DNA of 45,088 bases from a virus (Duplodnaviria; Caudoviricetes): positions 1 through 45,088 of IMG/VR virus record IMGVR_UViG_3300016484_000479; one strand, 5' to 3'. The notes below the pieces were generated by a model. It worked only from the letters and a program-made list of their open reading frames with translations. It made no database searches and was not told the origin of the DNA. Made by a program: the position numbers and the translations under genes. Positions 1 to 44,446 of this stretch are shown one piece after another; position 1 is the first letter of the stretch; each line of letters begins with the position of its first letter.

Positions 1-81
1 ATGAGCCGCGCGTTCGAGCTCGGCATCGCTGTCATCGCGCTTTGCATCATCTGGGCGCTAGTGGCGCCGCTACCGGCCTAA
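1..81 (+). CDS. Possible 26-aa hydrophobic peptide (MSRAFELGIAVIALCIIWALVAPLPA)
   Basis: ATG at 1 to TAA at 79-81, one TM-like segment, followed directly by a terminator; no clear RBS visible. Confidence 0.4.
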   Translation: MSRAFELGIAVIALCIIWALVAPLPA

Positions 82-87
82 CCATGG

Positions 88-118
88 GGGTGGATGGGGA
101 AACCTGTCCACCCTTTTT
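88..118 (+). terminator. Rho-independent terminator
   Basis: GGGTGGATGGG-GAAA-CCTGTCCACCC stem (2 G-U pairs) followed by TTTTT. Confidence 0.8.
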
Positions 119-134
119 CGTGCCCAACGGACCC

Positions 135-569
135 GGTAGCGTGCGGGTCCGCTGCCCTAGACTCGGAAACGGTCGGGCGCGCTAACTGGGAGTCCCGGTT
201 CGGGTGACACACATCGCAAAATCGCCATCGGTATGCCCGCGACTGCGCCGCCGCTTGTCGCCCGAGTCCGAGGCACCTTTACCCCTTTCGGGTAGGTATG
301 CCTCCGCCTCGACCCTTCGCCTTTCCCCTTTTCGCCTCAAATTAGGTTTCTTTTCGCAACCTTGCTCTTCGCTTTTCCTTTATTTACCAGTTTTTTTTTT
401 TTTCTAGGAAATTCAGAAAAAGGGGGAAGGGGGAGCGAGGGCGAAGGGACGACGCGACGAGCCGAAGGCATATCCATACCGATTTAGCGATGCATGAGGG
501 GTAATCCGGGACTCGCGGTTAGCTATCCCTACGGTTCCCGAGGCACGGGCAGCTATCCCCCGCGCTACC
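135..569. repeat. Long imperfect inverted repeat around a pyrimidine/poly-T and G-tract core; candidate origin or structured RNA
   Basis: 135-198 pairs with 506-569 without gaps (48/64 Watson-Crick by hand count); the same register continues at 212-224/480-492 and 230-237/467-474; T13 at 391-403. Confidence 0.8.
272..302. promoter_or_regulatory. Dispersed ACCC-N5-GGGT element, copy 1 (variant)
   Basis: GGCACC-TTT-ACCC-CTTTC-GGGT-AGG-TATGCC; same spacing as copies at 6389, 18621 and 30810. Confidence 0.55.
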
Positions 570-627
570 CCAGCCACTACCCCGCGATCCCGACGCGCGC
601 AAGTATGCCACCAACTGACCGGCGCGA

Positions 628-656
628 TTGCTTTCCGGCCGGTTTTGTGCTACCAT
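628..656 (+). promoter_or_regulatory. Sigma70-type promoter for early genes
   Basis: TTGCTT-17bp-TACCAT with extended -10 TG, upstream of the first early ORF. Confidence 0.65.
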
Positions 657-704
657 CGGGACGATGGCGAGGGGATTGGCTCGTCGCCATCCGGAGTCAA
701 ACCG

Positions 705-884
705 ATGGCACATATGCACGTGAGTGATAGCGGCCATGCCTACTACGGCAGGGCCTGGGACTGCGATCCCTTCGTCGAGCTCGACGATGAAACCGACCAG
801 CTGGACGAAGAGGACGCCAGCGGGGATTGGCAAACGATTGCCCTTGACCGCTGGGGCGATCGGCTCATCAATGGGAGGTATTGA
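705..884 (+). CDS. Small acidic hypothetical protein
   Basis: GGAG RBS at 693-696, ATG 705, D/E-rich. Confidence 0.6.
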   Translation: MAHMHVSDSGHAYYGRAWDCDPFVELDDETDQLDEEDASGDWQTIALDRWGDRLINGRY

Positions 885-886
885 AT

Positions 887-1117
887 ATGGCTTACTGGAT
901 AGAGCCGTTTGACTTGAACGGCGATTACTATCTCGGGTCGGACGGGTGCGTCAGGCTTGACGGGCGCTTCGGCCTTCAGCGCGCGATAAAGGAGGGGGTT
1001 AATTACTGCTTGCGGCTCCGATTCGTAAAAGGCTCAATCGCGGGCTTTCGCGTATCGCGTGGAAATAAACCATCACAGCTTTTCCCCGTAACAGCGATAA
1101 GGCTGCCCAGGGAGTAG
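887..1117 (+). CDS. Hypothetical protein (lower GC)
   Basis: GGAGG RBS at 874-878, ATG 887. Confidence 0.65.
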   Translation: MAYWIEPFDLNGDYYLGSDGCVRLDGRFGLQRAIKEGVNYCLRLRFVKGSIAGFRVSRGNKPSQLFPVTAIRLPRE

Positions 1118-1199
1118 CGATTGACTTTCCCGCGTAGCGGGCTGGTTTAACCATCGGCCCGCTATCGGGACGGCCATTCGTCCCTAAGGAGTCCAAACC

Positions 1200-1376
1200 A
1201 TGAGCCACCACCCACCCCGCGCTTGCACCGACCCGTTTCACGCGAGCTACCTCGCCTACGAGCCGCACCGCTCGCGCTTCCACCCAGACGACTTCGAGCT
1301 CGAAGTCTTCGACTCGCTCGACGACGAGATGCTGTTCGTCCTCACCTCCCACCACCTCAACGATGCGAAGGACTGA
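1200..1376 (+). CDS. 58-aa hypothetical protein (not in ORF track)
   Basis: TAAGGAG RBS, ATG 1200 to TGA 1374-1376, C-ending codon bias like neighbours. Confidence 0.7.
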   Translation: MSHHPPRACTDPFHASYLAYEPHRSRFHPDDFELEVFDSLDDEMLFVLTSHHLNDAKD

Positions 1377-1379
1377 GCC

Positions 1380-1565
1380 ATGGCCCTTCCATCCCTCAAG
1401 CAAGTCCTCATGGACCGTGACGGCCTCACCGAGCGCGAGGCCCTTGATCTCATCGACGAGTGCCGTCGGGAGATAGCACTCGTTGAAAGCTACGACGAGG
1501 CTGAGTCAATCTACGAGGACTACTTCGGTCTTGAGCCCGACTGGCTCGACGAAATCCTTTTTTAG
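1380..1565 (+). CDS. Hypothetical protein
   Basis: Tightly packed ORF with phage-like codon bias. Confidence 0.75.
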   Translation: MALPSLKQVLMDRDGLTEREALDLIDECRREIALVESYDEAESIYEDYFGLEPDWLDEILF

Positions 1566-1575
1566 GAGCTCCGCT

Positions 1576-1743
1576 ATGCGCACCATCGACGTCACTCCCA
1601 CTTGGACCGCCGTCCTTCCCGCCTGGCTCGCCGTAGCCGAGCAGGGATACCGCACCCACAACCTCGAGCTCATCTCTAACTTCGTCGCTGAGATGCGACG
1701 GATGGCCGAGGCCGCCGACCGCTGGAACGCCGCTCATGAATAA
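1576..1743 (+). CDS. Hypothetical protein
   Basis: AGGAG RBS, ATG 1576. Confidence 0.7.
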   Translation: MRTIDVTPTWTAVLPAWLAVAEQGYRTHNLELISNFVAEMRRMAEAADRWNAAHE

Positions 1744-1948
1744 CCTCATCCACGCACAGGCCCACCACCTCTATTCCGACGCCGCAGGCATTACGTTTGA
1801 CTTCGGCGCCGGGGAGGTTGACGTGCTTTGGCCCACCCCCGACCAGCCCAGCTACTGCGTCGCCAGCGCGCGGGGCGTGGCCGAGTTCCTGTCCTTCGCC
1901 GACGCGCTTGACTACGCCTGCCGCGGACCGTTTGTTGAGGTGCTGTGA
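1736..1948 (+). CDS. Hypothetical protein
   Basis: Overlapping start/stop coupling with neighbours. Confidence 0.7.
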   Translation: MNNLIHAQAHHLYSDAAGITFDFGAGEVDVLWPTPDQPSYCVASARGVAEFLSFADALDYACRGPFVEVL

Positions 1949-2253
1949 TGACCGTCCGCCTTGGCCTCGGCCCCGACAACGACCTCGAGCTCACCCTCCC
2001 ATCGGGAGTTCGCCGCTACGTCCCGGTCGGCCCACACTCAACCCAGCTGCTCTGGCGCATCCTCTGGTCCGCGACCAGCGGCGGCACCGAACCGGCGGTC
2101 AAGTTCCCCGCCCAGCGCGTCATTGACCAGTGGGCGGAAGAGATCATGCCAGGGCGCCGTGCCGAGGAGACCGAAGCGCGCGCCGCTGAACGCCGTGAGG
2201 CCGCCGCGCAGCGCGTAGCCGCCAGTGGCTTTGACATTGACTTCAACCTGTGA
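1945..2253 (+). CDS. Hypothetical protein
   Basis: GAGG RBS, GTGA overlap. Confidence 0.7.
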   Translation: MMTVRLGLGPDNDLELTLPSGVRRYVPVGPHSTQLLWRILWSATSGGTEPAVKFPAQRVIDQWAEEIMPGRRAEETEARAAERREAAAQRVAASGFDIDFNL

Positions 2254-2263
2254 GGAGCCTCGT

Positions 2264-2452
2264 ATGCAAAAGCTGTGGCGTAAACAGTTTAACCAGGGCT
2301 TTCGTGTTAGATCAGTCGATCTTATAGAGCGTGAAGGTAACGCTATGCTCAGTGTGGGCGTTTACGGAGCCCATTACGGGATGGTCTTACTCCCGCATGA
2401 AGTTGATGAACTGATCAAAGCCCTTTTACAGTTTAGGAGCCTTCCCCTATGA
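2264..2452 (+). CDS. Hypothetical protein (lower GC)
   Basis: GAGGAG RBS, ATG 2264. Confidence 0.65.
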   Translation: MQKLWRKQFNQGFRVRSVDLIEREGNAMLSVGVYGAHYGMVLLPHEVDELIKALLQFRSLPL

Positions 2453-2664
2453 CCAAAATTGAACGAGTCCAAGCCTTCCGCGCGCCGGACGGCCAGCTCT
2501 ACGCCACCCGCGAAGAGTGCCGCGCCGCCGTGATCCAGGCGGTCGTCACCGACCTTGTCGCTTCCACCTGCGTTGAGTTCGACGCCCAGGGCGTGACAGA
2601 TTTCGTCTGCCGCAACCTCGATCTTATCAACGCGAGCGTGGATCGCGCGATGGGGTCGGTATGA
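2449..2664 (+). CDS. Hypothetical protein
   Basis: AGGAG RBS, ATGA overlap. Confidence 0.7.
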   Translation: MTKIERVQAFRAPDGQLYATREECRAAVIQAVVTDLVASTCVEFDAQGVTDFVCRNLDLINASVDRAMGSV

Positions 2665-2960
2665 TCCAGCGCGCCGACAGCTGGCACGGGGTGGCCATCC
2701 CGCCCCTCAGCCCTTCCGCCGCCACCGCGTTCGAGACCGCGTGGATACTCCTTAACAACCCGGTGGCCTACGTCACCTCGAAGGGCCATATCGACCGCAG
2801 CCGGGCGCCGCGCAACGGCCACTGGCGGGACGTGATGGCCCTGGCCCTCTCCGTCATCGACGAGCCGCGTGACGCCCAAGACTCCGCCATCCTCGCCCAC
2901 ATCACCCACCTCCGCAACCGCTGGCGCACGGCAGTTCCCGGCGTCACCTTCAACATATGA
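2661..2960 (+). CDS. Hypothetical protein
   Basis: ATGA overlaps at both ends. Confidence 0.65.
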   Translation: MIQRADSWHGVAIPPLSPSAATAFETAWILLNNPVAYVTSKGHIDRSRAPRNGHWRDVMALALSVIDEPRDAQDSAILAHITHLRNRWRTAVPGVTFNI

Positions 2961-3301
2961 GGCCCTCTATGTCCCGACTATCCCAGTTCTTCGATGTCAA
3001 GCAGGTGGCCGATCAGGCCCTAGCCGCCGGTGGTGGCACCTACACTCTCCCCACCCACGGCGACGCGGTTCACTGGCGCCAGCGCTTCTACCGTTTCCGC
3101 AAGGCGTGGCACAAGGAGTTCGCTGACCCGGCTTACGACTCCATCATCCTCCGGCGCGTGGCCGAAGGGTCCGCCACTGTCCACATCGAAATCCAGCGGG
3201 TGCTGGGTAACTTCGTCCCGGCCGGCGAGAGCCAACCATCGGCCGATCTTTTCGCCGAGGCGGAACTGTTCGCCAAGAAACTGAATGGAGACATCCTGTG
3301 A
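2957..3301 (+). CDS. Hypothetical protein
   Basis: ATGA overlap, codon bias. Confidence 0.7.
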   Translation: MRPSMSRLSQFFDVKQVADQALAAGGGTYTLPTHGDAVHWRQRFYRFRKAWHKEFADPAYDSIILRRVAEGSATVHIEIQRVLGNFVPAGESQPSADLFAEAELFAKKLNGDIL

Positions 3302-3579
3302 CCGACCGAGACTACATCGCTGAGCGCATTAACGCCGGTGCCCATCTCATCCCCGGCCACATGGTCGGCGCGGTTCGCCGTTACATCCTCGACGGTATCC
3401 CGCCCGGTTCATTCCTGACCGCTGTCATTTGCAACGACCTTTTCGGTGCGGTTGCTTGCGCCGATGAGGAGAACCTTGTGGCTTTGGCCTCTTGGGTCCG
3501 CTTTTTCTACAACTACGCACCGACTGGCTGTTATGGCTCCCGCGAGAACATGGCCAACTGGATAAGGAGTATCCCCTGA
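3298..3579 (+). CDS. Hypothetical phage protein (GIPPGSFLTAV motif)
   Basis: GGAG RBS, GTGA overlap; motif resembles a common small phage protein family. Confidence 0.75.
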   Translation: MTDRDYIAERINAGAHLIPGHMVGAVRRYILDGIPPGSFLTAVICNDLFGAVACADEENLVALASWVRFFYNYAPTGCYGSRENMANWIRSIP

Positions 3580-3791
3580 TGCACACCGCCTTCTCTTACA
3601 CCCTCGACCGCGAACCGCCTCTCGACATCAACGTTGAGGGTTACTATGAAAAGGGCTGGAAGCTCCGCCCTGCCGAGCCCGGCACTTTCGTCATCGAGTC
3701 GGTGACTGACGAAACCGGCGCGGAGATTGAAACCTCCGAGGCCGAGGACGCCGCTATCATCGAATACGCACTGGACAACCAAGACTGGTAA
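3579..3791 (+). CDS. Small acidic hypothetical protein
   Basis: TAAGGAG RBS, TGATG overlap. Confidence 0.7.
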   Translation: MHTAFSYTLDREPPLDINVEGYYEKGWKLRPAEPGTFVIESVTDETGAEIETSEAEDAAIIEYALDNQDW

Positions 3792-3802
3792 GGAACTTTG
3801 TT

Positions 3803-4072
3803 ATGCCGCTCGCACCTTGCACGATCCTCGGGGGTTTACCCGTTATTGCTGATGTCACTTTTACCCGCGACTACTACGGGGAGCACGACGCATACGTTAA
3901 CGAGCTTTACTGGCAGGTGCGAGGCAGCCTACGGCATGGAAAGCCCTTAAGCCAAAAAGTTATGGATAGGCTGGACAAAATCCCATACTGGGAAGCCGAC
4001 GTTATTGAACAAGTAAACGATTGGCTCGCCTCACTTGAACCTCCAACTACGGAGACCCTCGATGCCCCGTAA
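3803..4072 (+). CDS. Hypothetical protein (lower GC)
   Basis: TAAGGA RBS. Confidence 0.7.
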   Translation: MPLAPCTILGGLPVIADVTFTRDYYGEHDAYVNELYWQVRGSLRHGKPLSQKVMDRLDKIPYWEADVIEQVNDWLASLEPPTTETLDAP

Positions 4073-4247
4073 CCGCCTAATCACCCTCACTCAATACCCC
4101 GACGGCAACATCCTGCTGACCGCTGGGTTCCTCAGCCGGGCCTACAAGGTCGAACTATCGCCCGACGAGGCCCAGCACCTTTCCAACCGCCTGCAGGCCT
4201 TCGTCAAAGGCCAATACACTCTCCCCGAAACCATCATCAAGGACTAA
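4062..4247 (+). CDS. Hypothetical protein
   Basis: GGAG RBS, ATG 4062. Confidence 0.65.
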   Translation: MPRNRLITLTQYPDGNILLTAGFLSRAYKVELSPDEAQHLSNRLQAFVKGQYTLPETIIKD

Positions 4248-4251
4248 CCCC

Positions 4252-4957: not shown

Positions 4958-4959
4958 CT

Positions 4960-6384
4960 GTGTTCACCCCAACCGACGAACAACTCGCCATCGTTGACGC
5001 CGCCGTCAACTCCACCGACAACCTCCTCATCCAAGCAGGCGCCGGGGCGGCCAAAACCTCCACCCTTGAGCTCGTTGCCAAGGCCCTGCCGGACACCGAA
5101 ATCCTCTGCCTCGCTTTCAACAAAAAGATCGCGCTGGAGATGACCGAGCGGATGCCGGCGAACGTCAAGGCCATGACCCTCAACGCCATCGGCCACCGAG
5201 TCTGGATGGACTCGTCCGGCCGCCGGTTGCGCCTCGAGACCGACAAGACCTACAAGATCATGAGCGAGCTCATCGAGGCCCTCCCTTCCTCTTCCCGCCC
5301 CTACGACTCGATGGGCGAGCTGATGAAGCTCGTCGGCTTCGGCAAGCAATGCGGTTACGTCCCGACTGACCACTTCCCCCAGGCCCGCGGCCTCATGTCC
5401 GACGAGGAGTTCTTCGCCCACATCGACCTTAAACTCTCCGACATCGAGTTCGACCTTGTGCGCTCCGCCACGGTCCAGTCAATCACCCAAGCCCTCTCTG
5501 GCCTCATCGACTTCGACGATCAGGTCTTCATGCCAACCATCTTCTCCGGCTCCTTTCCCCGCTACAAGCTAACCCTCGTAGACGAGGCCCAAGACCTGTC
5601 CTCCCTCAACCACCGAATGCTGCACAAGATGGTCGGCACCCGGCGGCTCATCGCAGTTGGCGATCGCGCCCAGGCGATCTACGGTTTCCGCGGCGCGCAC
5701 GAGGAGTCGATGAAGAAGCTGGGCCAAGAGTTCTCTTGCCGGGAGCTCCCCCTCACCTTGACCTTCCGATGCCCCGAGACCCTCGTCGCCCACGCGCGCT
5801 GGCGTGCCCCGCTCATGCGCAGTAACAAGCCCGGCGGCGAGGTCAAGACCCTCGGGTCTTGGTCCTCCGACTCCATCCCCGACGGCGCCTTTATCCTCTG
5901 CCGCAACAACGCTCCGCTGTTTCGCACGGCCGTCCGGCTGCTCAAGCAGTCTCGGCACTGCGAGCTTTCGTCCGGCGACGTTGCCAAGCAGCTGCTCAAA
6001 GTCATGACCAAGTTCGGTCCCAAGTCCCTCACCCAGCCCGAGGTGCTCGACAAGATCGAGGCGTGGAAGGAGAAGGAGAAGGCCAAGCTCAAGCCCCGCG
6101 CCCACGGGCTGGTTCACGACAAGGCCGAGTGCATGGTCATCTTCGCCAACGCAGGTGCCACCCTCGGCGAGGCCCTGGCCTACATCAACCACCTCATCAA
6201 CTCCACCGGTTCAATCAAGCTCTACACTGGCCACAAGGCCAAGGGTCTCGAGACCGACCACGTGTTCATCCTCGACAAACAGCTCCTCGACGACGAGGGG
6301 CAGGACCTCAACCTCCTCTACGTCATGCAAACCCGCGCCAAGCAGACCCTCACTTACATCGACTCCGGGGGTTACGTTGGGTGA
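4960..6384 (+). CDS. UvrD/Rep-like superfamily 1 helicase
   Basis: Q motif (PTDEQ), Walker A AGAGAAKT, DEAQD, GDRAQAIYGFRGA, TGHKAKGLE, YVMQTRAK. Confidence 0.92.
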   Translation: MFTPTDEQLAIVDAAVNSTDNLLIQAGAGAAKTSTLELVAKALPDTEILCLAFNKKIALEMTERMPANVKAMTLNAIGHRVWMDSSGRRLRLETDKTYKIMSELIEALPSSSRPYDSMGELMKLVGFGKQCGYVPTDHFPQARGLMSDEEFFAHIDLKLSDIEFDLVRSATVQSITQALSGLIDFDDQVFMPTIFSGSFPRYKLTLVDEAQDLSSLNHRMLHKMVGTRRLIAVGDRAQAIYGFRGAHEESMKKLGQEFSCRELPLTLTFRCPETLVAHARWRAPLMRSNKPGGEVKTLGSWSSDSIPDGAFILCRNNAPLFRTAVRLLKQSRHCELSSGDVAKQLLKVMTKFGPKSLTQPEVLDKIEAWKEKEKAKLKPRAHGLVHDKAECMVIFANAGATLGEALAYINHLINSTGSIKLYTGHKAKGLETDHVFILDKQLLDDEGQDLNLLYVMQTRAKQTLTYIDSGGYVG

Positions 6385-6514: not shown

Positions 6515-7042
6515 ATGGAGACTCGCCCCAAGGTCATCAACGGCCTCTCGTTCGAACTCACCCAGCCCTACGCTGAAGGCCATGTCCTGACCGCCCTCGA
6601 GGCCCGCGTCCTCAACCAGACCCGCAGCGAGAACATCGGCAACAACGTCCGCCAGCGGATCAAGGACATGCTCGAAGGCGGCACTGAAGCCTACCCGCAG
6701 CCGGCCAGCGAAGCCGACATTCGCGCCTATGTCACTGAGTTCGACGCGGCCTACGAGTTCCGCACCGCCAGCGAAGGTGGCCGGACCTCGCGCGATCCTT
6801 ACGAAGTCGAGGCGCGCAAGATCGCCCGCGACCTGCTCAAGGATCACCTGGCTGCCTCCGGCCGCAAGCTCACCGTCGCGCCCGAGGGCCTCACCGACGA
6901 CGAGTGGAAGGAGAAGGTCGATACCGAGATCGACCGTATCGCCTCGACCGACGGCGTTCTGGCTGCGGCCAAGAAGAACGTCGATGCGAAGAAGAAGCAG
7001 GCGGCGGCGCTCGCCGAGGCGGTTGGCGGCTCGAGCATCTAA
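6515..7042 (+). CDS. Hypothetical helical protein, probably highly expressed
   Basis: Own promoter and GGAG RBS, strong codon bias, followed by a hairpin. Confidence 0.85.
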   Translation: METRPKVINGLSFELTQPYAEGHVLTALEARVLNQTRSENIGNNVRQRIKDMLEGGTEAYPQPASEADIRAYVTEFDAAYEFRTASEGGRTSRDPYEVEARKIARDLLKDHLAASGRKLTVAPEGLTDDEWKEKVDTEIDRIASTDGVLAAAKKNVDAKKKQAAALAEAVGGSSI

Positions 7043-7783: not shown

Positions 7784-7981
7784 ATGGACATTGTTGAGCT
7801 TCTCGCCCGTGATCCACTCCTCTACACCGAGGACGACCTCACCCTCATCGTCACCGAGTTGCGCAAGTCCCGCGCCGCCTTCAACCTCGGCAACGTCAAG
7901 GCTGGTTCGACCAAGCCCAAAACCGCCAAGCAGAAGCAGCTGAGCGACCTCGCCGGCTCCATCGGGGGGATTAACCTGTGA
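7784..7981 (+). CDS. Hypothetical protein
   Basis: TAAGGAG RBS, ATG 7784. Confidence 0.75.
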   Translation: MDIVELLARDPLLYTEDDLTLIVTELRKSRAAFNLGNVKAGSTKPKTAKQKQLSDLAGSIGGINL

Positions 7982-8916
7982 CCGCCCCCTCCTCCTTCGA
8001 CGCCTCGGGCGTTCAATTCGCGTGGGATTCCACCTCGATCAAGCTCGCCGAGACTTGCCTTTACAAGTATCAGCTCAAGATGATCTTTGGCTGGCAGCCT
8101 GAGCGCAAGTCCGCCCACCTTATCTTCGGCGGCATCTACGCTTCGGCCCTCGAGAACTACCACAAGGCCATAGCTGACGGCGTGGACCGCGAGCAGGCCG
8201 TGCGCGACACCGTTCACGAGGCGCTGATCGAGTCATGGGAACATGAGCTGGACGAAGCGGGCGAGCCCATCGTCGGCTCCGGCCATCCGTGGGAGTCCGA
8301 CCACAACCTGAAAACCCGCGGCAACCTCATCCGTTCCATCGTCTGGTATCTCGATCACTTTCAGGACGACTCATGCGAGACCGTCATCCTCTCCGATGGC
8401 CAGGCCGCGGTTGAATATTCCTTCAAGCTCGAGGCCGACGATGGCATTATCCTGTCCGGCCACCTCGACCGCCTCGTCAACTACGCAGGCCACCTCTACA
8501 TCCAAGACCAGAAATCCACTGGCACCACGATTTCCTCGCGGTTCTTCGAGCAGTTCAACCCCGACACTCAGATGTCCCTCTACACCTTCGCGGGCAAGTC
8601 GATCTTCAACCTCCCGGTCAAGGGCGTAATGATCGACGCTGTGCAAGTGGCGGTCGGCTTCAGTCGGTTCGAGCGAGGCTTCACCTTCCGGGCTGAGGAT
8701 CAGCTTAACGAGTGGTATGACGGCGCAATGTCCACCATCGAGCGCGCCCAAGCCGCCACCCGCGCTGGTTACTTCCCGATGAACCCCAGCTCTTGCGGTA
8801 ACTACGGCGGCTGCGAGTTCCGTAACGTCTGCTCGAAGGCGCCCTCGGTTCGCCAGCAGTTCCTCAAGGCTGACTTTGTCCAGGGCAAGATTTGGAACCC
8901 GCTGGAGTCACGCTAA
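7978..8916 (+). CDS. PD-(D/E)XK RecB/Cas4-like exonuclease with probable Fe-S cluster
   Basis: GHLDRL, IQDQKST, QMSLY motifs; one N-terminal Cys plus C-terminal CGNYGGCEFRNVC. Confidence 0.88.
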   Translation: MTAPSSFDASGVQFAWDSTSIKLAETCLYKYQLKMIFGWQPERKSAHLIFGGIYASALENYHKAIADGVDREQAVRDTVHEALIESWEHELDEAGEPIVGSGHPWESDHNLKTRGNLIRSIVWYLDHFQDDSCETVILSDGQAAVEYSFKLEADDGIILSGHLDRLVNYAGHLYIQDQKSTGTTISSRFFEQFNPDTQMSLYTFAGKSIFNLPVKGVMIDAVQVAVGFSRFERGFTFRAEDQLNEWYDGAMSTIERAQAATRAGYFPMNPSSCGNYGGCEFRNVCSKAPSVRQQFLKADFVQGKIWNPLESR

Positions 8917-9101: not shown

Positions 9102-9866
9102 ATGCCAACCCTCGACCAGCACCAGTCATCGAAGTTCTGCAAACTCATCTACATCGGTGATACCTCCACCGGCAAGACCGGCTCCCTCGTGAGCCTGCTT
9201 CAGGCAGGCTATCGCCTTCGCATCCTCGACCTTGACAACGGCCTTGACTCCCTCAAGTTCTATGGCAAGAAGGCCGGAGCCGACCTGTCCCTCGTCGAAT
9301 ACGAGACCATCCGCGACGAATACAAGGGCTCGAAAGCTGGCCCAGTCCTTCGCGGTCCGCCTCGCGCCTTCACCGACGGCCTCGCCAAGCTGACCGAGTG
9401 GTCCGAGATCGAGGATGAGAAGTCCTTCACCGTGATCGACACACTGGGCACCTTTGGCCGCCAAGCCTTCGAGTGGGCGAAGGGACTGAACCCGACCGCG
9501 AAAGACCCGCGTCAGTGGTATGGCACGGCACAAAAGGCGCTCGAGGACACCCTCGCCCTCCTTACCGGCCCCGGCTACCGCCAGAACGTCATCGTCATGA
9601 GCCATGTCAACTACAAAGAGCTCGTCGAGGGCGTGAACAAGGGATACGTCTCAGCCATCGGCACTGCCCTTGGCCCCAACATCCCGAAATACTTCAACAC
9701 CATGCTCCTGGCCGAAGCAGTCGGCTCAGGCACCAACGTCAAGAGGAAGATCAAGACTACCCCAACCGGAGTGATCGACCTCAAGACCCCGAACCCGGAG
9801 ATCGAGGCAAGCTACGACCTCGCTACCGGCCTCGCACAAATCGTAGCCAAACTGAAGGAAGCATAA
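9102..9866 (+). CDS. AAA_24/Sak4-like P-loop ATPase
   Basis: GDTSTGKT Walker A, LDLDNG, TVIDT Walker B, VIVMSH; lies between nuclease and SSB-like gene. Confidence 0.8.
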   Translation: MPTLDQHQSSKFCKLIYIGDTSTGKTGSLVSLLQAGYRLRILDLDNGLDSLKFYGKKAGADLSLVEYETIRDEYKGSKAGPVLRGPPRAFTDGLAKLTEWSEIEDEKSFTVIDTLGTFGRQAFEWAKGLNPTAKDPRQWYGTAQKALEDTLALLTGPGYRQNVIVMSHVNYKELVEGVNKGYVSAIGTALGPNIPKYFNTMLLAEAVGSGTNVKRKIKTTPTGVIDLKTPNPEIEASYDLATGLAQIVAKLKEA

Positions 9867-13595: not shown

Positions 13596-14600
13596 ATGTC
13601 AAACATCATGCTGGTAGGCGAAGCTTGGGGCGAGAAGGAGGAAGAACTCCACCGCCCCTTCGCCGGAGCATCGGGCTGGATACTAAACCAGATGCTCTCC
13701 CACGCCGGTCTCGCTCGTGAGGATTGCTACGCAACCAACGTATTCAACCTGCGGCCTCGCCCATCCAACGACGTTAAGAACCTGTGCGGCTCGAAGTGGG
13801 AGGGTATCCCCGGTTTGCCCGAACTGCAGAAAGGCAAGTATGTCCTTGCTCAATACGCCAGCGAGCTCGACCGACTGTTCGACGAAATCCAGCGGGTCAA
13901 CCCCAACGTCATTGTGGCTCTCGGAGCTACTCCGGCATGGGCGCTTTTACGCTCGACTGGAATTAAGTCCATCCGGGGGGCTGTTGCACCGACACATCCC
14001 GCTGTCAGCGATCGACTTGGACGGACCTACAAAGTCCTCCCAACCTACCATCCGGCAATGGTCCTCCGAGACTACTCAGCCCGCCCGGTCGTCACCTCCG
14101 ATCTGGACAAAGCCCGACGCCAGTCCGAGTTTCCTGAAATCCGCCGCCCCGAGCGCCACATCTGGCTTTCCCCCTCCTTGGACGATCTCGCCCTCTATGA
14201 GCGACAGCACATTCTCCCGGCCGAGCGTCTCGCTTGTGACATCGAGACTGTCGGCACACAAATTACTTGCATCGGTTTCTCGCCAAGCCCTGACTCATGC
14301 TGCGTCATTCCATTCTTCAAGGGCACGAACCAGTCCTACTGGTCTTCGGTAGCCGAAGAAGTCGAGGCCTGGAACTACGTCCGCCGCTGGTTGAAGAAAC
14401 CCTGCGTCTTCCAGAATGGCCTCTACGACATGAGCGTCCTCTGGCGCCACCACCACATCCCAGCCGCAGCTTCCGAGGACACCATGCTCATGCATCATGC
14501 GTGGCAGCCCGAGATGGAAAAGGGCCTTGGCTTCCTCGCCACCCTTTACACCGACGAAGCCAGCTGGAAGTTTATGCGAAAGGGACTCAAGCATGATTAA
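13596..14600 (+). CDS. Family 4 UDG-like domain fused to the N-terminal part of a PolA 3'-5' exonuclease (polymerase subunit 1)
   Basis: MLVGEAWG, PFAGASG, TNVF, PTYHPAMV (UDG); CDIET (ExoI), QNGLYD (ExoII), DTMLMHH; no ExoIII. Confidence 0.85.
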   Translation: MSNIMLVGEAWGEKEEELHRPFAGASGWILNQMLSHAGLAREDCYATNVFNLRPRPSNDVKNLCGSKWEGIPGLPELQKGKYVLAQYASELDRLFDEIQRVNPNVIVALGATPAWALLRSTGIKSIRGAVAPTHPAVSDRLGRTYKVLPTYHPAMVLRDYSARPVVTSDLDKARRQSEFPEIRRPERHIWLSPSLDDLALYERQHILPAERLACDIETVGTQITCIGFSPSPDSCCVIPFFKGTNQSYWSSVAEEVEAWNYVRRWLKKPCVFQNGLYDMSVLWRHHHIPAAASEDTMLMHHAWQPEMEKGLGFLATLYTDEASWKFMRKGLKHD

Positions 14601-15468: not shown

Positions 15469-15852
15469 ATGGAAAACTTCACCAAGTCCTGCACCCGCAC
15501 CGAGTCCGGCGCCGTTCCCCTCGGCCACAAGGAACTGTCCCGCCTGCTCCACGCTGCGATGGGCCTGTCTACCGAGTCTGGTGAGTTCATGGACCAGCTC
15601 AAGAAGCATCTTTACTATGGTAAGGAGCTCGACGAGCACAACCTGCGCGAGGAGCTCGGCGACCTGCTGTGGTATATCGGCATCGCCTGCGACGCCCTGA
15701 ACACCACGGTCGAGCTCGAAATGGCCCGTGTGATCAACAAGCTCATGGTCCGCTACCCCGACCGGTTCAGCAATTACCTCGCCCAGAACCGCGACCTCGA
15801 TGCCGAGCGCACCGTGATCGAGCAGGCCAACGGCAACCAGATCATCGCTTAA
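15469..15852 (+). CDS. MazG-like all-alpha NTP pyrophosphohydrolase
   Basis: GLSTESGEFMDQLKK...EELGDLLWY acidic motif, KLMVRYP. Confidence 0.88.
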   Translation: MENFTKSCTRTESGAVPLGHKELSRLLHAAMGLSTESGEFMDQLKKHLYYGKELDEHNLREELGDLLWYIGIACDALNTTVELEMARVINKLMVRYPDRFSNYLAQNRDLDAERTVIEQANGNQIIA

Positions 15853-15899
15853 CCTTCCCGTTCCGAGGCGGCCGATGTGACAACGGGCTGGAGAACCAC

Positions 15900-17408
15900 A
15901 TGCGCATAATCAACACTGCCGAGCTTGACTTGCTCAACCTATCCACCGACGAAAACTACTGGGTTTACAACGGCCTTGACAACTGCGTGACGCTCGAAAT
16001 TTTCAACGAGCTCAACGCCATGATCGACGACACCGCGCGCCACACATACGAGTTTTCCAAAGCACTTCAGGCCCCGGTGCTGGAGATGAATATGCGCGGC
16101 GTGCTGGTCAACCAGAACCGGCGCCGCGAGGTCATCGCGGATTTCGAGGCCAAGACCCGGCGGCTGGAAGCTCAGCTATCCGTCATCCTCGACGGCGTAT
16201 TCGATCTGCGTGGGTTTAACTGGGCCAGCCCGGCACAGTGCAAGAACCTCTTCTACGAAGTCATGCGCCTCCCGGTGCAGAAGAAGCGAAACGCCCACGG
16301 CATCTTCGCCCCCTCGACTGACCGAGCCGCGCTGGAGAAACTATCCATCTATCCTGTAGCCGAGCCAATCATCAACCATGTGCTGATGCTACGCGACTTG
16401 GGCAAGAGCCTTGGTTTCCTCCGCACCCCACTTGACTCCGACGGTCGCCTTCGCACGACGTTCAACATTGCGGGCACAGTGACCGGCCGGTTCGCCTCAT
16501 CCGCCGATGACTTCGGCACTGGCACCAACCTCCAAAACATCACCGAGTCGCTCCGTTCCATTTTCGTCGCCGATCCGGGCTACAAGTTTGCAAACCTTGA
16601 CCTCGAGCAAGGCGATAGCCGCAATGTGGGCGCCCTCTGCTGGAACTACTTTGTAGAGTCCCACGGTGAAACCTTCGCCGGTGCCTACCTCGACGCCTGT
16701 GAGTCCGGTGACCTCCACACCTACGTGACCAAGCTGGTCCAGCCCAACCTCCCATGGGGCAGTGCACCGGACCGTCAGATCGCTGACCTCCCATTCTACC
16801 GAGCGAAGTCCTACCGCGACGGGTCGAAGGCACTGGGCCACGGGTCGAACTACCTCGGCAAGGCCGCACACATGGCCAAGCAGACTAAGTTTCCATTCCG
16901 CGACGTTGAGAACTTCCAGAAGAAATACTTCGAGACCTTTCCCTGCATCCCTGAGTGGCACAAGCGGGTGTTCTGGAAGCTGGAAAACCTTGGCTTCCTT
17001 GAGAACCTCTTCGGTCGCCGCCGGTGCTTTTTCGGGCGGTTGAACGAAGATGCAACCAGGCGTGAAGCTGTGGCTCATGAAGGCCAGTCAATGACTAGCG
17101 ATGAGATCAACACTGGTCTGCTCAACCTGTGGCGCGCCAACCGGGTGCAGCTACTGATCCAGGTCCACGACTCAATCCTTTTCCAGTTCCCTGAAGAGCA
17201 GGAAGACGAGATCGTCCCGTGGGCGCTGGAGGCCCTCAAGGCCCCGCTGGTCCTTCTACGCGACCGGCCTTTTGTGGTGCCTACGGAAGCCAAGGTAGGC
17301 TGGAATTGGGGCAACCATAGCCCTGATAACCCCGATGGCCTAACCAAGTGGAAAGGCCACGATCCCCGCACCCGCACCGAAACTCGTTTCAAGTTGAGCC
17401 TCCTGTGA
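15900..17408 (+). CDS. polA: Family A DNA polymerase (ExoIII helix + polymerase domain; subunit 2)
   Basis: YNGLD ExoIII, TVTGRFAS, NLQNI, motif A DLEQGDSR, motif B KALGHGSNY, motif C QVHDS; GGAG RBS before ATG 15900. Confidence 0.93.
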   Translation: MRIINTAELDLLNLSTDENYWVYNGLDNCVTLEIFNELNAMIDDTARHTYEFSKALQAPVLEMNMRGVLVNQNRRREVIADFEAKTRRLEAQLSVILDGVFDLRGFNWASPAQCKNLFYEVMRLPVQKKRNAHGIFAPSTDRAALEKLSIYPVAEPIINHVLMLRDLGKSLGFLRTPLDSDGRLRTTFNIAGTVTGRFASSADDFGTGTNLQNITESLRSIFVADPGYKFANLDLEQGDSRNVGALCWNYFVESHGETFAGAYLDACESGDLHTYVTKLVQPNLPWGSAPDRQIADLPFYRAKSYRDGSKALGHGSNYLGKAAHMAKQTKFPFRDVENFQKKYFETFPCIPEWHKRVFWKLENLGFLENLFGRRRCFFGRLNEDATRREAVAHEGQSMTSDEINTGLLNLWRANRVQLLIQVHDSILFQFPEEQEDEIVPWALEALKAPLVLLRDRPFVVPTEAKVGWNWGNHSPDNPDGLTKWKGHDPRTRTETRFKLSLL

Positions 17409-18616
17409 AGCGTCGCCTCCCCAACTTCATCGACGGGTTCATGCAGTTCATGGCGGACAAAGGCTCGCCTACGCTCTATACCCGCTGGACCGCAATCTTT
17501 GTCTTGGCCGCTGCGTGTGAGCGCCGGGTCTGGCTTGAGACGGTTAAGGGGGTGCTCTACCCAAACCAATACATCATCCTTGTCGGCCCCGCTGGTATCG
17601 GTAAGAGCGTGTGCACTAACTATGCATACGATCTGCTCGACAGCTTACGCACTCCTGAGTCCGAGTTCCACATCGCCCCAACCAGCGTAACCAAGGCATC
17701 CCTTATTGACGCACTGGAGAACGCGGAACGGCGGCTGGTCCGCCCGACTCACGTGCCCCCGGTCGTCACCTTCAACTCCCTCTCGATCATCCCGAACGAG
17801 CTGGGTGTCTTCCTTCCCTCATGGGAGGGGGACTTCATGAACGTGATGACCGACCTGTGGGACTGCAAGCGGTATTCCGAGAAGCGCCGGACGAAGAACC
17901 TGTCGATCTCGATAAGTGCCCCGCAGCTCAGCATGCTGTCCGCCACAACGCCGGCCTACCTGAACGGGTTCTTGCCCGAAGGCGCCTGGGAACAAGGCTT
18001 CATGTCCCGAACGCTCCTTGCCTTTTCCGGCGAGGTTATCCACAGCGATCTATTCGCTGAGCGGGTGGTCGACGAAAAGCTGTGGGCCGACCTGTGCGCC
18101 GACCTCAAGGAGGTGTATAAGTTGTTTGGGGAACTGACCGTCCTTGACGAAACCAAAGAGGCGCTTAACGCTTGGTCACGGTCAGGCGGCCACCCGGTTC
18201 CTGACCACCCGAAGCTCATGTCCTACAACACTCGTCGGCCAGCCCACTTGCTTAAACTCTGCATGGTTGCCTCGGTCGCCTCGGACAGTGAGCTAACCGT
18301 ATCCCTCGACCACTTCGTCGAGGCCCTTGATTGGCTCACCGAACTTGAGGCCTTCCTCCCCGACATCTTCAAGTCAATGAGGACGGGTGGTTCGGGCGCG
18401 GCGATCGACGAGTGCTGGCACTTCTGCTACGCGGAATACCTGAAGAAGAACAAGAAGCCGGTGCCTGAACCCCTGCTTTATGCCTTCCTCCAGGAGCGCG
18501 TGCCAGTGCACTCCGTCGCCCAGATTATCGAGGTCATGGTCAAGGCTGGTGTGCTTACCAAGCAGATGACGGAAACAGGCGGGATAGGCTACCTGCCGAA
18601 AACCCGTAGCGCATGA
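17405..18616 (+). CDS. DUF3987-like AAA+ ATPase, putative replicative helicase without primase domain
   Basis: YPNQYIILVGPAGIGKS Walker A, IIPNE Walker B variant, GFMSR arginine finger; GTGA overlap with pol. Confidence 0.75.
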   Translation: MKRRLPNFIDGFMQFMADKGSPTLYTRWTAIFVLAAACERRVWLETVKGVLYPNQYIILVGPAGIGKSVCTNYAYDLLDSLRTPESEFHIAPTSVTKASLIDALENAERRLVRPTHVPPVVTFNSLSIIPNELGVFLPSWEGDFMNVMTDLWDCKRYSEKRRTKNLSISISAPQLSMLSATTPAYLNGFLPEGAWEQGFMSRTLLAFSGEVIHSDLFAERVVDEKLWADLCADLKEVYKLFGELTVLDETKEALNAWSRSGGHPVPDHPKLMSYNTRRPAHLLKLCMVASVASDSELTVSLDHFVEALDWLTELEAFLPDIFKSMRTGGSGAAIDECWHFCYAEYLKKNKKPVPEPLLYAFLQERVPVHSVAQIIEVMVKAGVLTKQMTETGGIGYLPKTRSA

Positions 18617-30792: not shown

Positions 30793-30809
30793 GGTCGTTC
30801 TCCAGTTTG

Positions 30810-30843
30810 GATATGCCTTTACCCATTAAGGGTCGGGGCATAC
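30810..30843. promoter_or_regulatory. Dispersed ACCC-N5-GGGT element, copy 4, just after the MCP stop
   Basis: GATATGCC-TTT-ACCC-ATTAA-GGGT-CGG-GGCATAC. Confidence 0.75.
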
Positions 30844-31842
30844 TTAGCTCACAAGGGCTTCATCGCTCGCCAGGCGATCGACGCGACGGATCGGCACACC
30901 GTTGAACGAGGTGACCATCACCCCACCCACCTGATCGACCGTCAGCGTGCTGTTCTTCACAGCGGCTGCCGACTGCTGGCGCAGCTTCGTCACCAACCCG
31001 CGATCCATATACCAAGCCGCCCGCCCGCTCGTGACGTTCGGCAGCCGTTCGTAGGCCTGGAACATCAGGTTCGGGAGGTTCGACCCGGTAGCAGCATCGG
31101 CGGTCAGCGCCGAACGGTCGATGTTGCAGATGCGGACGAAGTAGCGCCAGTCGCGGATGGTGAGACCCGCATCCCAGCGATAGTGCGAACGATACGCCTC
31201 CATGCGGCCACCGGCCCCATCGACGTTCTCGATCGTCACCTGGCCCTTGTCCTCCATCTGGAGACCGGCCTTCGAGCCCTTCGGCACGATACCGTGACCA
31301 GTGTTCGGACCCCACACGCAGAGCCAGATCGAGGCGTTATCCGAACCAGCGCCATCTGCCTTGATGACGTTATCGCCATTGGCAGCCGTCGAGTCGTTGA
31401 ACCGCGGCGACAGGCCGGTAAAGGCCTCGGGCTCGGTGCCCTCGTTACCGTAGAACAACGTATCGGCGACTTCCTCGCTCATCCCCTCGATGTGAGGACG
31501 ATCTTCGGACAGGCGGAACTCAGCGGTGTTGCCGTTGAGATCGGCAAGCGCCTTGTCCACTTCGGCGTAGGCCTCGAGCATACCGCACGAGTCGGTGACC
31601 TGCACGGTGCGCGACTTGGTCGGCTGGACGCCGCCGTAGAGCTTGCGCCAGGTCGGGGTGGGCAGACCGACGCGGATCGTGGTCCGATGGCCGGTGACGA
31701 GGTTGCCCTCGACCCAAACCATGTCGGTCAGGATTTCGTTGGTCTGGTTCAGGATTTCCACAATGTCAGCGATGCTGCCATCAGGGTCGGTTCGACGTGC
31801 CAGATCGAGCAGCGTCGGGTGGGTATCAGCGAGAGTAGCCAT
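30844..31842 (-). CDS. Major capsid protein (BPP-1/epsilon15 type)
   Basis: PTLLDLARR...IVEILNQTNEIL...HRTTIRVGLPTPTWRKLYGGVQPTKS, FNGVPIRRVD. Confidence 0.93.
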   Translation of the reverse strand: MATLADTHPTLLDLARRTDPDGSIADIVEILNQTNEILTDMVWVEGNLVTGHRTTIRVGLPTPTWRKLYGGVQPTKSRTVQVTDSCGMLEAYAEVDKALADLNGNTAEFRLSEDRPHIEGMSEEVADTLFYGNEGTEPEAFTGLSPRFNDSTAANGDNVIKADGAGSDNASIWLCVWGPNTGHGIVPKGSKAGLQMEDKGQVTIENVDGAGGRMEAYRSHYRWDAGLTIRDWRYFVRICNIDRSALTADAATGSNLPNLMFQAYERLPNVTSGRAAWYMDRGLVTKLRQQSAAAVKNSTLTVDQVGGVMVTSFNGVPIRRVDRLASDEALVS

Positions 31843-42115: not shown

Positions 42116-43551
42116 CAGAGAGTGCCTCCGTAAAGTGATGCGAAGTAGGTGTTGACCTCACCGCGTTCGGTTGCGTCGAGCGCCCGGCCCGGCCAGATCG
42201 CCATCCCGTAAACGCGCCCCGCGAACCAGTTGCTGACCGTGGTGCGCAGCAGGCCACCCAGCGTGACGTTGTTGAGCGTCAGGCTATTGCCCGCGCGGGT
42301 ATAGGCCCTGCGCGTCCCCGCTACGCCGTCCTTGTAGATCGTGATGCCGCTGCCATCGTCCACCATGATAATGACGCGATCCGAGCCATCGAAGGCGCTG
42401 GTATAGTTGCTCAAGGTGCTGGCCATGACATCGACGCCGCTGTTATTTCGGATGTAGTTCGCCGCGTTAGCTTGGTTGCCTGCCAAGTTCTGCGAATAGA
42501 CCGCATTGTAGAACTGGTTGCCGCTGGCCGTGCTGGCGGACCCGACAAGGGTCTTGGTGATACCGTTGGACAGGCTGCGCATGGAAATGGCCACGGTGCA
42601 GCCAGAGGCATTCCACATGCTCAGATCGGCCATGTAGCGCAGGATGTCGTCGGTGCCGTCGAACTCGACCCAGTGGTAGCCACCGGACGTTTTGTAGAGC
42701 GGGCGGGTGCTGCCATTCGATGCAGCGGCCATGTGGTGATCGAGGCTTGAAAGGTCATCCCATCGGCCCACCACCTGCCCGTCCGCCGTCACGGGAGTTG
42801 TGCCGTCGATAAGCTGCCACAGGGTCGCCGTGTCGGATGCATCAACATAGAGTGCAAGGTCGGTCTGCGGGATCGGTAGGCCGCCGGGTAGCATTTCTTC
42901 AGACAGTGTATTTGACCACGCCGTCACACCATTGCGCAGGATGCCTTCCTGCACATCGATCACCTGCCCGGTGGCGAACGGCTCGGCAGCGAACAGCGGC
43001 CAAGGGTAAGCAGCACCGTCGATACCGTAGTCCATCTCGAAATCGCTGTCGTAGAGAACATCGGTTTCGTAAGTCCACGCCCCGCCGTCGATCCGCCAGC
43101 GGCAGCGGATGTAATCGATGTCGATGATGAGGCTGGTGTAATCCGATGACCACGCCATCGGGTTGAATCCGGGGTCACTGGTCTGCGTCAGGACGGGGGC
43201 GTCGGGCGCTTGGCCGTATTCCGTAATAGCGAGGTAAAGACGATAACCCCACGAACCAACTTCTGCGGGGGCGCCGAGGGTTTCGAGAGCCAAAACCATC
43301 CGGGCTTCGTAGCCGCCTTCAGTTGCGTTTGCGACAGTGCTAGCTGCCGCCAATGCCTCAAGAGCCTCAGCGGTCCGCTTCATGTATCCAGGCTGGTTAG
43401 CGTTCGCTGAGGTGCTGGCCCCCGCGAGTGTTTCCGCCGCGAGGGCAATTCGCTTCCAGTAACCCGCTTCCGTCGCATTTGCGGAAGTGCTCGCCCCGGC
43501 ATCGGTCTCAATTTCAGTCGCGATCAGTGCAAGGAGGTTCGGCTGGGTCAC
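42115..43551 (-). CDS. Fibre/adhesin-like protein with 25-aa N-terminal repeats and C-terminal LamG/ConA-like domain
   Basis: LYVDASD...VGRWDDLS...FDGTDDIL...FAGRVYGMAIW. Confidence 0.7.
   Translation of the reverse strand: MTQPNLLALIATEIETDAGASTSANATEAGYWKRIALAAETLAGASTSANANQPGYMKRTAEALEALAAASTVANATEGGYEARMVLALETLGAPAEVGSWGYRLYLAITEYGQAPDAPVLTQTSDPGFNPMAWSSDYTSLIIDIDYIRCRWRIDGGAWTYETDVLYDSDFEMDYGIDGAAYPWPLFAAEPFATGQVIDVQEGILRNGVTAWSNTLSEEMLPGGLPIPQTDLALYVDASDTATLWQLIDGTTPVTADGQVVGRWDDLSSLDHHMAAASNGSTRPLYKTSGGYHWVEFDGTDDILRYMADLSMWNASGCTVAISMRSLSNGITKTLVGSASTASGNQFYNAVYSQNLAGNQANAANYIRNNSGVDVMASTLSNYTSAFDGSDRVIIMVDDGSGITIYKDGVAGTRRAYTRAGNSLTLNNVTLGGLLRTTVSNWFAGRVYGMAIWPGRALDATERGEVNTYFASLYGGTL
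43285..43509 (-). repeat. Three tandem 75-bp (25-aa) coding repeats
   Basis: ETDAGASTSANATEAGYWKRIALAA / ETLAGASTSANANQPGYMKRTAEAL / EALAAASTVANATEGGYEARMVLAL. Confidence 0.8.
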
Positions 43552-44108
43552 TGGCAGGTGCCTTCGATGGTCCGCGCCTGCACCCGCTTCCGGGCCGCCT
43601 CGAGCCGGCCCGCTAGGTCCACGTTGACGTTGACGTTTGTTGAGGATGACTGGGGGCCGTGACCCGTGCGGTCAGCGCCCATCTTGGTTACTTCCATCAG
43701 CTGACCGATTGAGAACTTTTCAGGTTCTTCGGTCAAGCGGGTAGCCAGCTCCTCCGCCGCGTCGGACGCCAGCCCGGACAGCTGCTCGTGCAGGCCGAGA
43801 TACTGCCGGTTCACATCGTCGCGGTAGAAGGTTAGGAGCTCCCGGAACGCCGGGTCGGACTGCAGGATGCTCACCCGCGACAGTTCGTAGCGGCAGATGA
43901 CCGCGGCCTCGCCAGGAGATAGGCCGGAGGCTAGCGCGCGGGCAAGGGCGTGGTGCCGCTCACCGAGCCGCTTAAGCGCCGGTGCCCTGCTTCCCTTCTC
44001 CTCGCCCAGGAGGACCAGGTCGGCCTCCTCCAGCGGCCTTACGGCTCGCGCCTCGACCGGCCTCGCGGCCCGCCCGGTGGTTCGGAAGATGTCAAGGGGC
44101 GCGTTCAT
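43548..44108 (-). CDS. Putative terminase small subunit
   Basis: N-terminal HTH-like segment, helical middle, VNVNVDLAGRLEAARKRV tail; first gene of the late arm. Confidence 0.55.
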   Translation of the reverse strand: MNAPLDIFRTTGRAARPVEARAVRPLEEADLVLLGEEKGSRAPALKRLGERHHALARALASGLSPGEAAVICRYELSRVSILQSDPAFRELLTFYRDDVNRQYLGLHEQLSGLASDAAEELATRLTEEPEKFSIGQLMEVTKMGADRTGHGPQSSSTNVNVNVDLAGRLEAARKRVQARTIEGTCQ

Positions 44109-44143: not shown

Positions 44144-44446
44144 TGGGGCTGAGCGCCCGGCTTCGCCGTTCGGCTGATACGCTTCGCGTATGCCTCGGAG
44201 GGGGCTATATATTTTGCGAAGTGGGTGGGCGGCGCGCGAGGCCTACCCCACCCGGCGAACCCACCCCCACGCAAGCGTGAAAAGAGATGGGGTAGGGGGT
44301 AGCGCGTTCATAAAGACTCGGCGAAAGATGAACGGAATAGGCGGGGCTAAGTAGTTGAAAACTCGGGCGAAAATAGTTGTTGACCTTCGCCGCGACTCGG
44401 CGGCATACCATTGGGGCGGCAATCAAGCCGCGAAGGAGTCAATGAC

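Follow-up and report, generated by a model that had tools for sequence, protein, structure and literature searches.

A family-wide T-tract foldback, possibly a DNA replication origin, in podoviruses with PolA, an MCM-like helicase and no recognisable primase

The foldback and the genes of the window

The window, i.e. the whole stretch of 45,088 nucleotides taken from a tailed-phage record of IMG/VR, has virion genes that match podovirus PHROGs and, close to its left end, a long imperfect foldback built around a T tract. We refer to this region, together with its flanking transcription signals, as the element, and its parts are the following:

88..118, plus strand: intrinsic-terminator-like hairpin with a T tail, closing the upstream early transcript (direct reading)
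135..244: outer left arm of the dyad, pairing with 460-569 (inverted-match scan)
270..310: operator copy, one of three in the genome, with a TACCC-N5-GGGT palindrome at 280 and a GTATGCC flank
297..332: inner left arm, pairing with 417-472 (inverted-match scan)
333..390, plus strand: pyrimidine-rich ramp leading into the T tract
391..403, plus strand: T13, the putative unwinding core and apical loop
404..435, plus strand: A-rich, then G-rich stretch
460..569: right arm (inverted-match scan)
566..585, plus strand: 19-mer nearly identical to one right of the T tract of phage Kuura, and absent from other elements
628..656, plus strand: outward sigma70-like early promoter, TTGCTT-17-TACCAT (pattern match)

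A preliminary description of this DNA had reported ungapped pairing between positions i and 704-i, and our recount agreed with it exactly: 48 of 64 positions pair over 135-198/506-569, including 16 of 18 in the inner stretch at 181-198/506-523, followed by 12/13 at 212-224/480-492 and 7/8 at 230-237/467-474. The next-best ungapped 64-nt inverted match with a loop below about 1 kb, anywhere in the window, reaches 37/64. The nested pairing of the same right arm was recovered as three segments (I3, 297-319/450-472; I6, 315-332/418-435; I7, 305-321/440-456), and the symmetry axis lies 45 nt left of the tract centre. Chance symmetry had been named as one way for the claim to fail; none of 100 shuffles equalled the foldback, as RNA or as DNA and on either strand, with z scores of -5.7 (plus) and -6.6 (minus) for RNA folding and of -4.9 and -5.3 for DNA folding of the two strands (100 shuffles each). 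Assembly artefact had been named as another. Because 1-3000 is covered, at one difference, by a single 20-kb unitig of the probable source run, and 44-563 of the window recurs with 20 differences in a separate sample, taken from sediment, the foldback is real and not a misassembly.

Several smaller features could be read directly from the sequence as previously described, namely the T13 at 391-403, which is the sole T or A run of at least 7 in the genome, the terminator-like hairpin, and the repeats AGCTATCCC (at 521 and 551) and GAC(C/T)CGG (at 130 and 160); the suggested 30-bp period of the arms was examined at these two repeat pairs only. The promoter proposed at 628 stands as a pattern match, and a stricter consensus scan returned no promoters in 1-5000. 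Directly after it, at 652-692, a hairpin and repeated GATGGC words occupy the leader of the gene at 705. Within 404..435 the A-rich part is conserved across elements and the G5-AA-G5 tract is not, the latter being peculiar to the window genome (1/31 elements). The 19-mer was rejected as a family motif, an exact search having returned two loci, both in unrelated coding DNA.

The replication module lies to the right of the element, on the plus strand:

4960..6384, plus strand: UvrD/Dda-like SF1 helicase (Pfam/PHROGs)
7978..8916, plus strand: PD-(D/E)XK exonuclease
9102..9866, plus strand: AAA_24 ATPase (Pfam), which we take to be Sak4-like
13596..14600, plus strand: UDG and 3'-5' exonuclease half of a split PolA
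15669..17408, plus strand: polymerase half of PolA
17405..18616, plus strand: DUF3987 protein, MCM-like AAA+ helicase that has a predicted winged helix at its C-terminus and lacks a primase domain

The DUF3987 model (403 aa, pLDDT 85) consists of AAA+ plus a winged-helix-like tail only, and its top Foldseek matches are all MCM (E 8.5e-11), so that, as modelled, the protein has an MCM-like fold with no room for a primase domain. It matches 25 phage records, comprising 15 Pseudomonas phages of the PaP2/119X/PaMx41 group together with Kuura, Tiera, Mel-JY34 and others, and has no match in plasmids; a search of viral contigs with UvrD as the query gave no relatives. No primase family was detected among 50 ORFs with Pfam or among 61 with PHROGs, except for the label of DUF3987 itself, and a diverged primase among the unassigned small ORFs is possible. 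Neither an Orc1/Cdc6 family match (Pfam, PHROGs, window ORFs) nor an RNA polymerase gene was detected in the window. Passages in Kazlauskas et al. 2016 (PMC4889955) treat DUF3987 as a replicative SF6 helicase and observe that dsDNA viruses encoding a polymerase nearly always encode a primase too, 119X being listed as one of the rare exceptions, with priming that may be non-canonical.

Other genes of the window are recorded here for their own interest. A methyltransferase and a MazG-like gene separate the two PolA halves (13596-17408); in Mel-JY34, LS06 and PaMx41 PolA is one gene. The ORF at 12206-13549 fuses ParB-N to an N6/N4 DNA methylase (13/13 close and 4/8 distant relatives), which could point to DNA modification or to an episomal state. 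A stand-alone HIRAN domain, of a kind that binds 3' DNA ends, is encoded at 7064-7396 and in 9/13 close relatives, and could be relevant to end-primed synthesis. Among the late genes, a DUF1996 protein (40661-42115) is absent from the 26 other genomes tested.

Conservation of layout, boxes and operator copies

We rebuilt 13 near-complete IMG/VR relatives with DUF3987, four partial ones, and five same-capsid controls that do not carry DUF3987. In 12 of the 13 near-complete relatives the early-sense strand carries a single T9-16 tract, at a distance of 1126-2238 bp from the start of terS, and in the 13th (G004) the contig ends at the expected location; no T9 or A9 run was found in any of the five controls. 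In an unbiased genome-wide scan the top foldback was the tract element in 11/13 near-complete relatives and in the window, as well as in Mel-JY34, LS06, VS-ABTNL-3 and MW202489, and the contig of G008 breaks within the element; the top foldbacks of G014 and of the control G018 are not the tract element. A second search, via the gene orf175, covered 36 loci and added 16 full T-tract foldbacks, three further loci starting inside the tract, four having the foldback with a shorter or different AT core, and the remaining 13 showing neither foldback nor tract within the DNA covered.

Absence from relatives had likewise been named as grounds for rejection, and the symmetry recurs: the arms beat the best local shuffle in 29 of the 31 elements with both arms, the exceptions being Kuura and G017, with L250 marginal. 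Arms are weak in Kuura, G017, PaMx41 and Tiera. Among distant phages the same plan is clear in Mel-JY34, MW202489, LS06 and VS-ABTNL-3 and weak in PaMx41 and Tiera, and no clear element was detected in Aeromonas phage P5. What is kept is the order of parts, i.e. terminator (visible at the same place in most relatives; a crude pattern matched 17/31 elements), left arm, pyrimidine ramp, T8-33, A-rich stretch, right arm and outward promoter (pattern matched at the position of 628..656 in 19/31). The arms measure about 50-250 bp with roughly 60-80% complementarity, and across elements the symmetry axis falls a median of 9 nt from the tract centre. A BLASTn search with the region found no match among 50,697 phage records; the arms are not conserved in sequence and are unrelated between phages, and tract length ranges from 8 to 33. 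The element is family-wide, with its layout conserved and its sequence not.

Two variations on this layout were seen. In LS06 (A17, L184:42970-43500) and VS-ABTNL-3 (L183:40400-41050) the homopolymer is flipped, being A on the early strand, and G-tracts adjoin it. Tandem duplications of about 71 and 68 bp are present in the left arms of Tiera (L086:43940-44085) and Kuura (L002:43240-43395), respectively.

The arms share short words rather than longer sequence. TATGG and CCATA are the most enriched words in both arms and peak beside the tract and near terS; GGTATG, CATACC, TATGGC and GCCATA, when pooled, number 55 and 52 in the two 500-bp bins beside the tract, and mostly 2-12 elsewhere. These boxes are often paired 25 bp apart around a phage-specific palindrome, which in the window is TACCC-N5-GGGT (copies at 280, 6399 and 30820). 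The preliminary description, which had located the arms and core correctly, missed this operator motif and its recurrence elsewhere in the genome:

6385..6428: second operator copy, just upstream of the orf175 promoter
6515..7042, plus strand: orf175, conserved helical protein, a candidate to bind both the operator and the origin boxes
30806..30849: third operator copy, downstream of the capsid gene

The palindrome core varies by lineage (GTAAC-N5-GTTAC in G009, G011 and G013), the TATGG/CCATA flanks being constant. For orf175 we found 278 homologs and obtained a model with pLDDT 92, whose fold had no match in PDB or BFVD, a best VIA Z of 5.2, and only unnamed clusters, under 0.9, in the Atlas; there was no match in bacterial genomes, and orf175 proved unrelated to the 194-aa early gene. 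Because the box pair sits directly upstream of the orf175 promoter (13/17 relatives by pattern, two more by eye, plus the window), its position suggests an autoregulated DNA-binding protein that may also coat the element.

The boxes also occur at promoters and upstream of terS and are therefore not origin-specific, and the element could be a regulatory or ejection device only, in the form of operators arrayed about a flexible AT hinge, acting either to control the strong early promoter or to hold up the incoming DNA once the first genes are inside. The recurrence of the box pair at the orf175 promoter would fit such a device, as would the half-site in or adjoining the outward promoter in many elements and the location of the element some 1-2 kb from the inferred first-entering end. 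We judge it improbable, given that operators at promoters elsewhere make do with about 35 bp and lack both the T tract and the long arms, and that 100-250 bp of maintained complementarity and a step in strand asymmetry would be left unexplained.

DNA symmetry, strand asymmetry and genome ends

The preliminary description had also entertained a ColE1-like primer RNA for PolA and a large undescribed ncRNA, and had argued that G-U and A-C mismatches together leave the folding strand unassignable. We agree on the last point. An RNA would favour G-U on one strand; the arm mismatches numbered 70 G-T, 98 A-C and 258 other in a first set of elements and 90, 99 and 295 in a second (the 36-locus scan), which sums to 160 G-T vs 197 A-C, with no strand-specific wobble bias. 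That the folding strand cannot be assigned points to dyad symmetry of the DNA. In DNA folding, both strands scored about equally and the tract was mostly unpaired in most elements (six shuffles each).

An RNA draws some support from the RNA folding scores given above and from substitutions that preserve pairing. In the sediment variant, 329T>C is compensated by 421A>G, and two changes (187T>C, 189G>C) complete a stem, with one pair broken at 176; among double changes in close pairs of genomes, which are not independent, 14/22 kept pairing and 8 broke it. Against this, one-sided pair breaks outnumbered compensations by 105 to 14 (close pairs, the arms being too diverged for a family alignment), A-C outnumbers G-T, non-wobble mismatches are the majority in both sets, and neither arm sequence nor tract length is shared between phages. 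Selection on a hairpin and arm-to-arm copying would both produce the maintained symmetry. The transcription signals are of a similar tenor. The terminator stands upstream, and patterns for a plus-strand promoter reading inward were found in 2/31 elements and not in the window, compared with the 19/31 that read outward; inward minus-strand patterns, which would speak for an RNA, occur in 9/31 at scattered positions, as a raw pattern count. The ColE1 origin motif is a conserved G-A-G tract, and a ColE1-like G-tract is present in the window element alone among the 31. Rfam gave no match near its gathering score (best E 0.13, 22.6 bits vs 100). Both RNA proposals thus fall away, a large structured RNA or a ColE1-like primer RNA being in our estimation highly improbable, and the element likely works as two-fold symmetric DNA.

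Strand asymmetry changes near the element. Synonymous GC skew on the plus strand of early-sense genes is +0.08 to its left and -0.27 to its right (24 genomes pooled, which are not independent) and climbs through the late block to about +0.2. A free breakpoint fit placed the jump within 2.5 kb of the element in 6/20 genomes and did not localise it in most, and after a post-hoc filter to expected-strand ORFs it fell within 1.5 kb in 7/12. The sign is opposite to that of the bacterial origin convention, and C-rich outgoing strands are also opposite to what simple deamination of a displaced strand would give. In LS06 and VS-ABTNL-3, with their flipped tracts, the skew is too noisy for a mirrored profile. 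We read the skew as marking a fixed replication boundary at or near the element, either origin or end, and no more. In the late block of close relatives the skew sign changes smoothly about 12 kb left of the element, within coding DNA.

The preliminary description did not include the observation that the mapped genome end of a relative, Kuura, falls inside the element. The Kuura record has a 606-bp terminal repeat, assigned by PhageTerm according to a passage in PMC9959647, with one boundary in the left arm, 55 bp from T12, and the other upstream of terS, in a block resembling one that is conserved in close relatives. In the window the corresponding features are:

43548..44108, minus strand: putative small terminase, 34% to the annotated TerS of Kuura
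44190..44330: conserved C-rich/TTCGC/CAAAAT block that lies upstream of terS and has an operator half-site

By analogy with Kuura, the block at 44190..44330 may be the far boundary of a terminal repeat. The word CCTCGACCC at 308-316, in the inner left arm, is the one at which the Kuura repeat ends, a weak lead as the word was not seen conserved in other relatives. The window itself is a linear contig, broken at an assembly bubble at 45088/1, where depth is 2-3 times the rest. Two alternative unitigs, of 439 and 570 nt, share the first 30 bases of the contig and are not found on its last kilobase; hence about 380-510 nt appear to be missing between 45088 and 1, so that a gene does not necessarily start at the ATG of position 1.

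These observations raise the alternative that the element is a genome-end processing site, i.e. the point of terminase cutting and terminal-repeat duplication, whether or not genome replication also starts there. If the left arm were nicked or cut, the foldback or the melted T tract would let PolA copy a repeat of 0.6-2 kb with no primase, and analogous terminal-repeat copying has been proposed for the hairpin end of T7. Besides the Kuura boundary, the records of PaP2, PaMx41 and Ph_15 open, as deposited, at the homologous AT core; most close relatives have the same box 50-150 bp upstream of terS, next to the block resembling the other Kuura boundary; in the probable source run, unitigs covering 44863-45088 reach a depth of 21-24, alongside a variant at 8x, compared with 10-11 elsewhere, which is only a weak hint; a molecule end would explain the skew jump equally well; and Shea has terminally redundant ends (PMC13348215). 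On the other side, the tract is the centre of the dyad, whose right half falls beyond the repeat, the records of TF17 and FBPa48 open elsewhere, and a single mapped end speaks for this alternative. The element is retained in Kuura, Mel-JY34 and LS06, whose terminases (TerL) and portals gave no match to those of the window, and it is absent from the five controls, which share with the window the capsid (66-70%), the portal (35-38%) and, in 4/5, TerL (27-32%). We regard a terminal role as rather unlikely but as a strong rival, and retain it mainly on account of the Kuura boundary and the record starts at the core. The site probably abuts a genome end as well, and the origin and terminus readings may both be true.

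A candidate origin and its comparison with known systems

On balance we favour, by a modest degree of belief, the reading that the element is the DNA replication origin of a large podovirus group with PolA, an MCM-like helicase and no recognisable primase. PolA, the UDG-exonuclease and DUF3987 are the only genes common to all 21 relatives tested, and the T tract is found in 12/13 DUF3987 relatives vs 0/5 controls. The anatomy is similarly a matter of observation, with inverted arms, an AT core whose T tract is fixed to one strand at the axis, and boxes on both sides. The original suggestion of an origin in a PolA phage with no visible primase has accordingly held up, in that the element co-occurs with the replication module, is built like an origin and accompanies an MCM-like DUF3987 protein that has no primase domain. 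Counting against an origin are the Kuura terminal-repeat boundary in the left arm, the equal co-occurrence of TerS (13/13 close relatives plus Kuura, 0/5 controls), the sign and poor localisation of the skew jump, which a nearby genome end would also give, the weak arms in Kuura, G017, PaMx41 and Tiera, and P5, where none is clear.

The form of origin toward which we lean, with about the same modest conviction, is a dyad with a T-tract core for melting and inverted TATGG/CCATA boxes, at which the helicase would be loaded. A phage protein, possibly orf175, would bind the boxes and the AT core would melt, whereupon DUF3987 hexamers could load in opposite orientations; each unwound strand might then fold back on itself as a long imperfect hairpin whose tip is formed by the T or A tract, a primer would be laid at the hairpin by an enzyme of the host (most likely RNA polymerase), and PolA would copy each strand continuously by strand displacement. 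Because such synthesis is continuous, no Okazaki primase would be needed. The hairpin folding and the host-primed displacement steps, taken jointly, are the weakest part of this scheme and are doubtful, the priming step being one that we infer. It is also a speculative and rather improbable extension that a widespread, primase-free phage group combines a minimal MCM-like helicase with a long imperfect DNA hairpin whose oligo-dT loop is a self-contained priming site that also sets the genome end; if true, a single device would serve both as origin and for terminal-repeat duplication, and bacterial viruses would have an MCM-driven equivalent of mitochondrial OriL.

Several known systems resemble the element in part. 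Archaeal oriC has an ORB-DUE-ORB arrangement at which MCM double hexamers are loaded, and the element likewise has inverted boxes flanking an AT-rich core, together with an MCM-type helicase; it differs in that no Orc1/Cdc6 was detected, the MCM N-terminal domain is missing from the phage helicase, and complementarity of the arms extends well past the boxes. Mitochondrial OriL, of about 30 nt, has an oligo-dT hairpin loop, is used by a family A polymerase with no dedicated primase, and is primed by a T7-like RNA polymerase. The family A polymerase, the missing dedicated primase and the hairpin with an oligo-dT loop are shared here; unlike the OriL system, the window has no detected RNA polymerase gene. 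For T7, a concatemer-junction hairpin has been modelled as the means of terminal-repeat duplication, and an inverted repeat just outside the terminal repeat is also what Kuura has; T7 differs in its primase-helicase, its short inverted repeat and its 160-bp repeat. The need for terminal-repeat duplication in T7 is discussed in a passage of PMC5923468.

Functional parallels are also found among plasmid origins. RSF1010 oriV, as presented in sections of PMC6925257 and PMC4234260, combines repeated boxes and a helicase with two inverted signals, ssiA and ssiB, and continuous strand-displacement synthesis; this IncQ origin is like the element in its repeated boxes, helicase and inverted single-strand signals. 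RSF1010 encodes a primase, RepB', and its hairpins are of about 40 nt (part of PMC8567376), whereas here no primase was found, a single T tract is flanked by arms of 50-250 bp, and the helicase resembles MCM. The stem-loop origin of pRN1/BIP-1 is described in a portion of PMC4234260 as conserved in shape over sequence, about 100 bp in size and just 3' of the rep gene, with a proposed role in loading a helicase that bears a winged-helix domain, the protein being a fusion of an AEP primase to an SF3 helicase. Conservation of shape is shared, 29/31 elements here beating shuffles, and so is a winged helix, here a predicted one; the helicase is instead SF6-like, has no AEP domain and is encoded about 17-20 kb from the element. 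The element may thus work in the manner of the RSF1010 or pRN1 origins, and we do not file it under either type because it differs from them in primase and position.

Among phages, coliphage N4 has a PolA with a UDG domain (passage in PMC13697223) and a DUF3987-family protein (passage in PMC4889955), and N4-like phages have terminal repeats of several hundred bp (passage in PMC6027278). Unlike the DUF3987 protein of the window, N4 dns has a C-terminal AEP primase domain, and no virion RNA polymerase is present here. Jamesmcgillvirus (PaP2, 119X, PaMx41; Fredfastierviridae) shares the genome layout, PolA plus DUF3987, and a homologous symmetric AT-core region at the same position; it differs in its virion module, in an identity of only 23-24% in DUF3987 and PolA, and in PaMx41, which has no long T tract. 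PaMx41 has no match to the capsid, portal, TerL or TerS of the window, which, as far as virion and packaging genes go, speaks against membership of the window in Fredfastierviridae.

No description of the element was found in the literature searched, and the element is real, family-wide and apparently undescribed; the original PaMx41 paper may treat the ends of that genome. It gives an address to the question of primase-less initiation raised for 119X in the cited part of PMC4889955, at a locus spanning the PolA plus DUF3987 group, including the culturable Kuura, PaMx41, PaP2 and Mel-JY34. If an origin, it would be the first candidate loading site found for a phage MCM-like helicase of the DUF3987 family, and it is a candidate replicon for the episomal state reported for the Jamesmcgillvirus Shea. 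If a terminus only, it would still define the genome ends of a large uncultured family whose assemblies often break there; contigs of the family frequently end in or near the T tract, as in L198, L278, L283, G008 and G004.
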